Virus record (IMG/VR): IMGVR_UViG_2563366976_000008
Coordinates: 1 to 11,953 of that record
Reading direction: 5' to 3' (one strand)
DNA length: 11,953 nt
Source: a virus
Lineage: Duplodnaviria > Heunggongvirae > Uroviricota > Caudoviricetes
Shown here in pieces: positions 6,001 through 9,000 of this stretch (position 1 is the stretch's first letter; every line of letters begins with the position of its first letter). The position numbers are program-made.

Positions 6001-9000
6001 CCCTGCGGTCAGTGCTGCTTCTTCGTTATAAGTAAAAATCACGTTGCTCATGCGGCGTTTTCCTTAATTTGATGAACATTATTGATGCCGTAGTAATCAC
6101 AAACAGTGGCATCGACGAAAGAGAGATCGTTATCAATCTCATTGGAATCAAACATTCCCATTGGGGATTTGACAGTGTCTGCACCGTTGTTTTTCGTGGT
6201 GAAAAAGAACTGGTCATCGCGGGTAAGAGTGCGAAGAACTATAGTAAACATGCCTTCGACAGTGATTTTCTCGTCCAGCATTTTGCCGATAGTTTTCATT
6301 TTCACGCGCCCCATAGGGGTTTCTTCGGTATGTGCAAGAAAATAGACTCTCAGGTCATCAGGTGCATCCTGTGCAGCCTTAATCACCTCCCATGCGTGGC
6401 GGCCTATCTCAGTAAATTTATCAAACGATTTTTCTTCTGAGCGGCGCATAAACTCATTGCTCATCACATACTGGAAGTCATCAACAATAACGATTCTTTT
6501 CCCGTATTCGTGAGCACGCTTAATTACGGCAACTATTACGTCCCATTTGTCAGTGGTAACTACGGTTCCTTTTTTTGCTCTGGCATCCCATGCCAGCCAG
6601 TCTTTTGATTTAAATGGTAGCGGCTTGCCTATTGGTTTTATAAGTATTGCTTCCTCTGGATTGATATTTCTCATGCTGGTTGATTTTCCGGTGCCAGATT
6701 CACCGAGTATTAATGTCGCAGTTCCCATAATTTGCCTCAGAATGGTAATTCGGATGGGGAGGAAAGAAACTCACGCTCATTCATGCGCTCTCTTTGCGCC
6801 TGCCATAAACAAAGTTGTTTCTTTGATTTATCTCCCGCTTTACGCCAGTAACGAGCCTCAGCAATGTGATATTCTCTTTTTAATCGACTTAACTCTGGAG
6901 TTTTCGCCAGTTCTACCGGAATCATTTTGACCTCCATTTTCTGTAGGCTTCTACGGCTTCACGAAACATCTTTTCATCGCCAATAAAAGTGGCGATAGTG
7001 AATTTAGTCTGGATAGCCATAAGTGTTTTATCCATTTTTGGGAACTCCTGGCTGATTAAGTATGTCGATAAGGCGTTTCCATCCATCACGTAATTTACGT
7101 GTGATTCGTTCAAGTAAAGATTCGGAAGGGCAGCCAGCAACAGGCCACCCTGCAATGGCATATTGCATGGTGTGCTCCTTATTTATACATAACGAAAACG
7201 CCTCGAGTGAAGCGTTATTGGTATGCATATAAAAAAGCCCTCACACTGGAGGGCAAAGAAGATTTCCAATAATCAGAACAAGTCGGCTCCTGTTTAGTTA
7301 CGAGCGACATTGCTCCGTGTATTCACTCGTTGGAATGAATACACAGTGCTTATTCGCAGCCTACATAATCATTCCGGTTATTATTACCATTTCAATATCA
7401 CTATCTTTCATAATGATTGGAGTTGAGTTATCAACTTTACTTTTACTCCATTTTCCTGCATCAGTTTTTACCGCTCCACAATAAGAAAGCCAATCATCAT
7501 CACAATGTTCTGGATCACTAATTCTGACAAGAACACGTGATAGTGCTTTTTCGATACTTTCATCACAATTAGCATTTGTGTAATTGCCGTGAGACAATTT
7601 CAAATCGTTAACTTCATCTTCATTGGCATCAAAAATATAGATTTCAGTCGACTCTGGAACATTTTCATAAACCATTAAAACTTTCATTTTTACCCCATAT
7701 TGTTTATGCCAAAAATAAAGGTCGGCTATGCGGCCTGAAATTACTTAATCAATGATGCTGCATATTCGATAAGGTAAAGTTTTGGGGCCAGCCAAATTTT
7801 TAACCAAGTCATATTGGTTACTGCACCAATAATAAAAATCCCCCACAGAGTCAAAACTCCAACCAATGGCACGATAAGAAGATTAATATCACCTTTGCTA
7901 TCCCAAACCATTGTCGGCCTGTATTTGGGATTTCCTTTCTCCCATGAATATCCTTCATCACCGATTTTACCTGTCTCAACTCTTTGGCACTGCTTCTTCA
8001 TAAACCAGAAAACCAGTGGGATTGTTAGAATGGCTATTAATGTTTTAATCAGACTGTCAACCATATTCCATAGCAGCAACTGATGAACAACATCAGGAAT
8101 CTGTGCCTGGCTAAATGAAACAGCCGCGTCTATTCCATTGCTGGCTTTTTGCAGTAGTTCTACGAGAATCTTGTTTGCTTGTTCTTCCATATATCACCTT
8201 AAATAGTGGCTTGCGGTAGTAAAGATTGTGCCTGTCTTTTAACCACATCAGGCTCGGTGGTTCTCGTGTACCCCTACAGCGAGAAATCGGATAAACTCTA
8301 TTCACCCCCTACAGAGAGAATGATGGAGATTCACCGATGAGTAACTGGTGGCAGGAACTATTACGTTTCTTCCTGCGTGGTCTTACGCTACAACAGTTAA
8401 TTCATATGCTTATTATTTTAATTGCCTTGATAATAATCACCCCAGCATCAATTAAAGAGTGGGTAGATATAAGGAACCCAGAAATACTTCCAGATCACTG
8501 GATGTATTACGCGATGCTTTTGTGTATCAGTTATGTTCTGAACAGGGTGATGGAGTTTATATTTCTGGCATCTTCAGACAGATATAAAAAATATCTCAGT
8601 AAGAGAGATGAGGCTAAAGTAATTGTGGAGACTGAGCGCCTGTTCAATTCTCTGAGTATTCAGGAAAAAGAGGTTTTAGCATTTGCTGTTATGGCAAATA
8701 ACAAAATCGTACTTAAGCACGGCGATCCGGTCGCTTTATCTCTTATGAGAAAAGGCCTTCTCCATCGCTCAGGTGTGACTTACAGCGCGTCAGGTAAAGA
8801 GAAATTTGTTATACCTGACGTCTGGTTCCATGAGTGTTATATGCGCTTTGCTGGTAAAGCTGATGAGCTAATTTAGTTCCTCGACGGCGGGGGATCGTCA
8901 TCTCGCCGTCAGTTGTTTTGATTTCCGGTAGCCTGCCGCGTAAAGAGCTACGTTTGGAAGACAAGTTGAACCTTCATATTTTCTGGTCAACGTTGTCAGA

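Follow-up and report, generated by a model that had tools for sequence, protein, structure and literature searches.

The sieB gene opposite gene N in a lambdoid prophage sequence: family membership, predicted architecture and putative control by Esc, sas and a 3' terminator

An open reading frame (ORF) that runs against the pL operon and converges on the antitermination gene N raises the question of what it encodes, how its expression might be controlled, and what its convergence with N might mean. The ORF lies in the window analysed here, i.e., the whole stretch of 11,953 nucleotides of a Caudoviricetes virus (IMG/VR record IMGVR_UViG_2563366976_000008, positions 1 to 11,953). A preliminary description of this DNA had proposed it as a SieB-like exclusion candidate. 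The reading frame is as follows:

8337–8876, plus strand: sieB coding sequence, ATG start, 179 codons plus stop (179 aa); assigned by Pfam, PHROG, P22 alignment, RefSeq identity and hhalign.

The protein matches the Pfam family PF14163 (SieB) over residues 23–154 with 72.8 bits (E = 3e-20), the gathering score of the family being 26 bits, and PHROG 1301 over residues 1–179 (E = 3.6e-94); a chance ORF at 8337–8876 was rejected on these two matches. SieB of phage P22 aligns with it end to end, with 48.9% identity over residues 2–179 (E = 2e-42), the window protein ending 13 residues earlier. Pairwise BLASTP against lambda SieB (lambdap48) was not significant, the protein identity being only 18–21%, so that profile methods (Pfam and hhalign) are needed to recover this relationship; by hhalign, lambda SieB matches the family profile with 99.1% probability (E = 6.8e-19, 166 columns), and the same Pfam model is matched by both lambda SieB and P22 SieB. 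In addition, the RefSeq protein WP_000073666.1, "super-infection exclusion protein B", is 100% identical to the window protein. Judged by these sequence comparisons, the ORF is a member of the SieB family, far beyond chance, and the earlier guess was right at the family level, the similarity to P22 and lambda SieB being found in both cases. The gene is an ordinary sieB copy, known and already named by genome annotation pipelines. Very probably, it is the sieB of a mosaic lambdoid prophage, encoding the abortive-infection protein SieB as an allele of P22 type.

Other searches added little to this assignment. PADLOC and NCBIfam scans gave no match for SieB or its neighbours, and the assignment thus has no curated defence model behind it. 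A profile search of PDB sequences with SieB returned chance-level matches only, and a fold search of BFVD returned SieB relatives only; in the phage collection searched, no protein was more than 51% identical to the window SieB.

The surroundings of sieB match those of the known genes. The convergent gene is:

8898–9170, minus strand: antitermination gene N, 90 aa, ATG with GGAGG upstream, the longest ORF extending to 9242; Pfam N_peptide, E = 2.4e-32.

N (8898–9170 or, at its longest, 9242), the cI-like repressor gene (10555–11202) and cIII all lie on the minus strand and sieB is opposed to them, as stated in the preliminary description; N converges on sieB and ends 21 nt from the sieB stop, and the RefSeq version of N beside an identical sieB is 273 nt long. 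The annotated records of P22 and lambda have the same arrangement, with sieB oriented against its neighbour N: in P22 the gene is flanked by the ral slot and by gene 24, the N analogue, and in lambda it occupies the same place next to N, transcribed rightward. The layout given for both phages in the preliminary description, sieB beside N with its own promoter, agrees with these records. The left neighbour of sieB in the window is a 149-aa transmembrane (TM) protein where P22 has ral; as an obligate partner of SieB this protein was rejected, since the slot is variable. The rexAB slot holds an unrelated DUF2335 gene. Two further ORFs were rejected as genes: a 44-codon ORF at 8206–8340, which is unsupported and precedes the mapped start site, and a minus-strand ORF at 8809–8964, which is likewise unsupported.

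Public assemblies contain the exact SieB protein in 1363 indexed blocks; among 5,426 complete E. coli genomes, 70 carry the whole allele together with the junction to N. Eight listed loci with the allele all have the 21-nt gap between sieB and the 3' end of N (N is called as a gene in six); what differs among them is the left neighbour and the immunity region. In no complete E. coli genome does a single place cover more than 53% of the window; the draft assembly GCA_000351465.1 has the same gene order as the window. Between a conserved leader and N, sieB forms a swapped cassette.

The control region upstream of the gene and the internal start were assigned by comparison with P22:

8267–8297, plus strand: PsieB promoter, 31 of 31 positions identical to the annotated P22 promoter (BK000583); −10 element TAAACT at 8292–8297, weak −35 element.
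8304–8336, plus strand: probable sieB mRNA leader, start at 8304 carried over from the homologous P22 feature "sieB RNA start site"; Shine-Dalgarno 8325–8328 (GGAG).
8406–8876, plus strand: Esc-equivalent frame with an in-frame start at Met24, 156 aa; ATG at 8406–8408 aligned base for base with annotated P22 esc.
8213–8341, minus strand: predicted sas equivalent (antisense RNA), covering the sieB start codon, leader and promoter.

PsieB is about 96% conserved in lambda, where promoter and upstream DNA together are about 96% identical over window positions 8195–8314, and its activity is predicted by homology. It was also located by homology only; a generic sigma-70 scan of 7600–9700 on both strands returned no promoter, PsieB included. 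The start site at 8304 was obtained by carrying the P22 annotation onto the window by alignment. From 8306 to the ATG, the leader is invariant in eight independent loci with the allele, and its only variation is a run of four or five C at 8305–9. Between this allele and P22, the 38 leader positions around the Shine-Dalgarno include 9 mismatches (24%), whereas 90 of 91 positions upstream of the start site are identical; the leader of lambda is much shorter. It has been reported from RNA-seq that P22 sas is 127 nt long (PMC13397905, Table 2); it maps to positions 1373–1499 of locus L001, i.e., window 8213–8341, with 119 of 129 positions identical (92%).

Whether the P22-style Esc/sas switch is present in this allele has to be weighed. 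The protein could be a true SieB homologue that makes a single product and has another form of self-immunity or none, or one that drift has left inactive or turned into a membrane protein with another target; we regard this as unlikely. Such a homologue would fit with the lack of a Shine-Dalgarno or other ribosome-binding site before Met24, with the failure to detect a sas promoter either by the sigma-70 scan of 7600–9700 or by eye in 8342–8400, with a sas-equivalent fold no more stable than that of shuffled sequence (z = −1.05), and with conservation being lowest where the leader pairs with sas (29/38 against 90/91 upstream of the start site). However, the Esc ATG corresponds base for base to that of P22, Met24 is kept in 22 of 26 SieB family members, and the esc start of P22 has no obvious Shine-Dalgarno either, yet Esc is annotated as a P22 product. 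Against drift to an inactive protein stands the unbroken ORF, which recurs unchanged in hundreds of assemblies despite differing flanks. Met24 is also the called start of three database homologues, and lambda has a Met at the Esc-equivalent position; a Met placed where a TM helix begins could also be conserved for its structural role. The in-frame internal Met codons fall at residues 24, 56, 60, 72, 119, 137 and 169, and the parallel to esc drawn from such codons in the preliminary description is borne out by the exact alignment of Met24 with the annotated P22 Esc start. An Rfam scan found nothing in the sieB region, and Rfam holds no family for sas.

The predicted structure of the P22-type SieB protein consists of a membrane part and a soluble part:

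8388–8453, plus strand: TM helix 1, residues ~18–39; hydropathy, AlphaFold2 helix 18–34, Pro36 invariant in the family.
8499–8573, plus strand: probable TM helix 2, residues ~55–79; hydropathy maximum 1.72, AlphaFold2 helix 55–104.
8649–8852, plus strand: C-terminal winged-helix-like domain, predicted cytoplasmic, residues ~105–172.

Hydropathy gives two hydrophobic segments, at about 16–39 and 57–79, and the AlphaFold2 model (pLDDT 92.7) places two long helices there, the second of which (55–104) continues from TM helix 2 as a predicted cytoplasmic stalk to residue 104; the linker 80–104 is rich in K and R. The 179-aa membrane protein described earlier was thus seen correctly, but with one N-terminal TM helix where hydropathy and AlphaFold2 both give two. 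SieB is predicted to be composed of an N-terminal amphipathic helix, two TM helices, a stalk helix and a cytoplasmic winged-helix domain, and the distribution of charges fits a topology with the N terminus inside, a periplasmic loop and the C terminus inside. Two hydrophobic helices ahead of a soluble C-terminal domain are a predicted architecture common to the family. Compared with winged-helix DNA-binding proteins of the MarR/ArsR type, for which a basic recognition helix would be expected, the candidate recognition helix here is short and largely hydrophobic, in a domain of almost balanced charge (10 K+R versus 8 D+E), so the fold says little about a ligand. Mean pairwise identity in the family is 38% for the membrane module and 22% for the C-terminal domain; identity to P22 SieB is 45% in the C-terminal domain and 17% in the linker. 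Swapped combinations of modules occur among the homologues, with identities in the two modules of 12% and 40% for P0032 and of 54–70% and 13% for P0014.

The biology of SieB is taken from P22 as summarised in secondary accounts (PMC10883804, PMC12197685, PMC10002423, PMC12888859) and in GenBank annotation. It has been reported that, under the action of P22 SieB, infection proceeds and macromolecular synthesis stops midway through the lytic cycle, and that SieA is the injection blocker of P22 (PMC10883804). By analogy, exclusion, translation of Esc and expression of sas would be expected for the window allele. In a lysogen, a weak, repressor-independent PsieB would give an mRNA from which full-length SieB and a shorter Esc, starting at Met24, are made, and SieB would reside in the inner membrane, as P22 genetics suggests. 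When a heterologous lambdoid phage is in mid-lytic development, SieB would halt macromolecular synthesis and the infection would abort; we propose that the variable winged-helix domain may sense the trigger and the conserved membrane module may execute the shut-off. Esc, which would lack the first 23 residues and with them the amphipathic helix, would antagonise SieB, following P22. A cognate superinfecting phage would make sas, which would cover the ribosome-binding site and start codon of SieB and leave the Esc start free; as in P22, translation would then be tipped to Esc, and the cognate phage would escape. The range of phages that this allele would exclude is not predictable at 49% identity to the tested P22 protein, and 45% in the C-terminal domain.

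Other prophage-encoded and phage-encoded proteins that protect the cell can be compared with this scheme. P22 SieA and T4 Imm/Sp are likewise small inner-membrane proteins that protect the infected or lysogenic cell from secondary infection, and the window protein, as a small prophage-expressed inner-membrane protein whose family name contains "superinfection exclusion", might be supposed to block DNA injection at the inner membrane as SieA and T4 Imm do, rather than to abort infection. This is very improbable: P22 SieB acts after entry, in mid-cycle, whereas SieA is the injection blocker (PMC10883804), no homology links SieB with the entry-blocking proteins, and the bulk of the protein, its winged-helix domain, is predicted to lie in the cytoplasm. 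In the abortive-infection reading there is a functional analogy, based on P22 genetics, with lambda RexAB and other membrane abortive-infection systems of prophages, which are expressed in the lysogen, have a membrane component and abort the lytic growth of rivals. Unlike RexAB, which is a two-protein pair of sensor and channel, the SieB system has one gene, whose antagonist would arise from an internal start, and no sequence or fold relationship was found between RexAB-type systems and SieB.

At its 3' end, the sieB cassette meets N in a hairpin:

8883–8920, plus strand: candidate intrinsic sieB terminator, stem-loop 8883–8910 followed by a T-run; terminator scan and folding.

The hairpin at 8883–8910 has 10 pairs, 7 of them G-C, and is followed by AGTTGTTTTGATTTC. 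Among the terminator-like sites that scanning of 7600–9700 returned (7 versus 1.9 expected), it ranks first, with a free energy of −18.2 kcal/mol (z = −2.44; 4 of 200 shuffles fold equally well). The N stop codon (8898–8900) falls within it, so that the overlap of the hairpin with the 3' end of N noted earlier is confirmed, and the right arm with the T-run corresponds, in reverse complement, to the codons that end N (K-S-K-Q-L-T-A-R-stop). The right arm is thus N coding sequence, and the left arm is specific to the window sieB allele: phage 2G7b carries the same N with a P22-type sieB and has no hairpin, and the same scan found no terminator-like site at the 3' end of P22 sieB, in contrast to the strong hairpin of the window allele. 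The hairpin is kept at all eight loci with the allele, with two G-C to G-U changes. From its sequence, it looks like a good intrinsic terminator for sieB; the sieB transcript would stop inside N's last codons, and constitutive sieB transcription would therefore not run antisense through N and pL.

The preliminary description had also suggested that convergent transcription with N could itself be regulatory. In that form the suggestion finds no support, as the antisense control documented for P22, through sas, works on the 5' end of the gene and the 3' hairpin looks like a terminator. A locus that is mainly regulatory, in which transcription of sieB into N tunes N and pL by interference or by RNA pairing at the 3' ends and the protein is secondary, would draw on the overlap of about 13–25 nt that the sieB and N transcripts must have at their 3' ends and on the conservation of this arrangement in P22, lambda and all loci examined. 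Its probability is nevertheless very small: the hairpin and T-run on the sieB strand limit read-through into N, the same hairpin on the N strand has no U-run, the absence of the hairpin beside the same N in 2G7b argues against a conserved 3' RNA element tied to N, and the protein is clearly conserved across the family.

For the P22-type abortive-infection allele, a further reading in two modules can be put forward tentatively, and taken as a whole it is rather doubtful. The amphipathic helix and the two TM helices may form a conserved effector and the hypervariable cytoplasmic winged helix a sensor, and the two may be exchanged independently among lambdoid phages. Each allele may carry its own leader variant, which would make sas RNA and sieB mRNA an allele-specific lock and key for self-escape. 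The window allele may also have built its own terminator by pairing its 3' UTR with N's last codons, insulating N from constitutive antisense transcription. The discordant identities of the modules, the allele-invariant leader that is 24% different from P22, and the allele-specific left arm of the hairpin are compatible with this reading.

The practical value of these results lies mostly in a sound annotation, and nothing here would surprise a specialist. In the literature consulted, no resolved molecular mechanism for SieB was found after the genetics of the 1990s; the two TM helices with a winged helix in the confident structural model, the modular divergence, and the amphipathic helix that would be missing in Esc provide handles for revisiting this protein. 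By analogy with P22, the window carries an anti-phage gene expressed in the lysogen, which may limit superinfection by lambdoid phages, including Stx-type phages, in carrier strains.

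The open reading frame at 8337–8876 is an already annotated member of the known SieB family in its canonical context. Against the Pfam family SieB (PF14163) it reaches 72.8 bits, where the cut-off is 26, and it matches PHROG 1301 across the entire protein (E = 3.6e-94). In a tblastn search of 50,697 phage records, P22 SieB aligned over residues 2–179 with 48.9% identity (E = 2e-42), and no record encoded a protein with more than 51% identity. Lambda SieB gave no significant match by pairwise BLASTP; a profile of the relatives of the window protein matched it with 99.1% probability (E = 6.8e-19, 166 columns), and PF14163 is matched by both lambda and P22 SieB. 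As a member of the family, the SieB-like exclusion candidate of the preliminary description is thus borne out by both family matches, as well as by the alignments to P22 and lambda SieB that had been named as its check, the latter at profile level. RefSeq WP_000073666.1, named "super-infection exclusion protein B" by PGAP, is 100% identical, while PADLOC and NCBIfam scans returned no SieB match. In a set of 5,426 complete E. coli genomes, the sieB DNA occurs with at least 95% identity in 123 (full-length in 70), and public assemblies contain the identical protein in 1,363 indexed blocks.

The gene is surrounded by a minus-strand early-left operon of lambdoid type, as listed below.

Features around sieB (window positions, strand, description)
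8337–8876, plus: sieB open reading frame with ATG start, 179 aa (ORF listing)
8898–9242, minus: N-type antiterminator open reading frame (Pfam N_peptide, E = 2.4e-32)
8898–9170, minus: N in the 90-aa version as in RefSeq, with GGAGG before the start
10555–11202, minus: LexA/cI-type repressor
11272–11529: Cro-like gene
7123–7181, minus: cIII thermoregulator (Rfam Lambda_thermo, 88.5 bits against a gathering score of 50)
Ending at 7028: cIII, the frame MQYAIAGWPVAG...

Further left in the window are recombination and anti-RecBCD genes, Ea22-like genes, xis and int. As described before, the sieB frame runs against pL transcription and is convergent with minus-strand N, from which it is separated by 21 nt. 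In the annotated P22 record, the interval from ral to gene 24, the N analogue, contains, in this order, the sieB promoter and RNA start site, followed by sieB (192 aa) with esc in frame within it, and in lambda sieB occupies the same slot; the statement that sieB lies beside N with its own promoter is therefore correct.

The sieB promoter (PsieB, 8267–8297) is identical to that of P22 at 31/31 bp, and the P22 RNA start site aligns with window position 8304. The P22 antisense RNA sas, as sequenced in a 2026 RNA-seq study (PMC13397905), is 127 nt long; its 5' end falls within codon 2 of sieB, and it runs back through the leader and promoter. It maps to 8213–8341 on the minus strand with 119/129 positions identical; the part upstream of the sieB start site is conserved at 90/91 positions, whereas the 38 nt able to pair with sieB mRNA are identical at only 29. 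The sas equivalent has an unremarkable fold, and no sas promoter was identified, a generic sigma-70 scan of 7600–9700 being empty on both strands. The lambda promoter-leader block is about 96% identical to that of the window, while the lambda SieB protein is only 18–21% identical. The preliminary description had also proposed that convergent transcription with N could be regulatory; the geometry alone speaks for this, and the known antisense control lies at the opposite end of the gene.

In addition, block 8195–8314, comprising PsieB and upstream sequence, is 96–100% identical among lambda, P22, phage 2G7b and the window prophage, although the SieB proteins of those phages are only 18–49% identical. 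Since most of this block is upstream of the sieB start site, its conservation is not accounted for by pairing of sas with mRNA; the block could represent the sas body, a linker for recombination, or the 5' part of the gene running leftward. A direct repeat, CCCCTACAGCGAGA (8271–8284) and CCCCTACAGAGAGA (8306–8319), flanks the PsieB -10 element and start site, and is conserved in P22 and, in part, lambda.

Phage 2G7b carries a P22-type sieB with the same N allele as the window, and its identity to the window is 97–100% in the leader (8180–8300), about 63% in the sieB body and again 97–100% from the N stop codon (8900) on. The 3' end of this N allele is present in 1,285 E. coli genomes, with homology beginning at 8897–8902, but only 70 of them join it to this sieB allele. 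The exchangeable unit is therefore a cassette of the sieB coding sequence plus 3' UTR, bordered on one side by the conserved leader and on the other by the end of N. Among eight independent loci with this allele, the leader shows no variation between 8306 and the ATG, and the C-run at 8305–8309 has 4 or 5 C, while the left neighbours (ral, an Nmad5 protein, a 149-aa TM protein and others) and the immunity regions vary. In the window, the slot of lambda/P22 ral is filled by a 149-aa predicted membrane protein (7741–8190, minus; PHROG 3054) without a Pfam family. At any single place, no complete E. coli genome covers more than 53% of the window, which marks the prophage as a lambdoid with heavy mosaicism; the gene order around sieB in draft assembly GCA_000351465.1 matches the window.

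The hairpin described as overlapping the 3' end of N is a stem-loop at 8883–8910 with 10 pairs, 7 of them G-C, followed by AGTTGTTTTGATTTC. It is the best terminator-like site in the scan of 7600–9700 (-18.2 kcal/mol, z = -2.44 versus shuffles), and the same hairpin has no U-run after it on the opposite strand. Reverse-complemented, its right arm and T-run encode the end of N, K-S-K-Q-L-T-A-R-stop, and the left arm (8883–8892) belongs to the sieB cassette; phage 2G7b, without this arm, has no hairpin, and no terminator-like site was found at the P22 sieB 3' end. The hairpin is kept in 8/8 independent loci with this allele, where two synonymous N changes turn G-C into G-U or the reverse.

Instead of the single N-terminal TM helix first described, the protein has two hydrophobic segments, at residues ~16–39 and 57–79. 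An AlphaFold2 model made with 23 homologues was confident (mean pLDDT 92.7) and contains the following elements.

Elements of the SieB model (AlphaFold2)
Residues 3–13: amphipathic helix
Residues 18–34: TM1
Residues 37–46: short helix
Residues 55–104: single long helix, TM2 and stalk
Residues 108–171: compact alpha/beta domain

Loop 40–54 has 2 K+R against 4 D+E and the linker past TM2 has 7 K+R, a charge distribution that supports an N-in, C-in topology. P22 esc is annotated as an in-frame 168-aa product beginning at sieB codon 25, and its ATG aligns base for base with 8406–8408 (Met24), so the start codon of the internal frame noted for P22 has an exact counterpart here. This position is Met in 22/26 aligned family members, and three database homologues are called from the equivalent start. 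On the model, the Esc start would fall within TM1, so that only the amphipathic helix and the first TM1 turns would be missing. Divergence in the family differs between modules: residues 1–80 average 38% pairwise identity, the linker 14% and the winged-helix domain 22%. For homologue P0032, identity to the window protein is 12% over the membrane module and 40% over the C-terminal domain, and for homologue P0014 it is 54–70% and 13%, respectively; such discordance, also found in homologue P0039, suggests domain shuffling between membrane and C-terminal winged-helix modules within the SieB family.

Several other features were observed in the window. Between the cI-like repressor and pL/N, in the position of lambda rexAB, lie a 177-aa DUF2335 membrane protein (Pfam E = 1.4e-17, PHROG 3996) and an overlapping 73-aa frame (9671–10367, minus), followed by a bidirectional terminator-like hairpin (9648–9672). 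PADLOC gave no match in this slot. A HicA toxin, a P63C protein or a DUF6932 protein is found there in other loci that carry this sieB; the slot resembles a hot spot for morons expressed in the lysogen, and its gene here is possibly another exclusion gene. Upstream of N are candidate nutL boxB hairpins UGGCU-GAAA-AGCCA (9268–9282, minus) and GCCAA-ACGGAAAAGA-UUGGC (9317–9336, minus), with operator-like repeats and a pL-like TTGACC...ACTATT at ~9345–9400. A sub-threshold Rfam match to sRNA-Xcc1 (2019–2103, minus; 49.6 bits against a gathering score of 53, E = 1.5e-6) spans the full model just upstream of an AntA/P22AR-type antirepressor gene (1356–2015). A 276-aa early-left protein (2585–3415, minus) fuses a dATP/dGTP pyrophosphohydrolase domain (E = 3.2e-41) to DUF551 (E = 1.9e-19).

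The primary work on P22 sieB is reportedly that of Ranade and Poteete in 1993 and Susskind et al. in 1974. By homology, the window locus most likely works as that of P22 does. When P22-like phages other than P22 itself superinfect, P22 SieB brings macromolecular synthesis to a halt in the middle of their lytic cycle (PMC10883804). The P22 gene yields both SieB and its inhibitor Esc, and sas, made by the superinfecting phage, prevents synthesis of SieB but not of Esc (PMC10002423, PMC12197685, PMC12888859). In the window prophage, the membrane module of SieB may be the effector and the variable winged-helix domain the sensor, with Esc as a dominant-negative partner; the 3' hairpin would shield N from sieB read-through, and the allele-specific leader would confer allele-specific escape.
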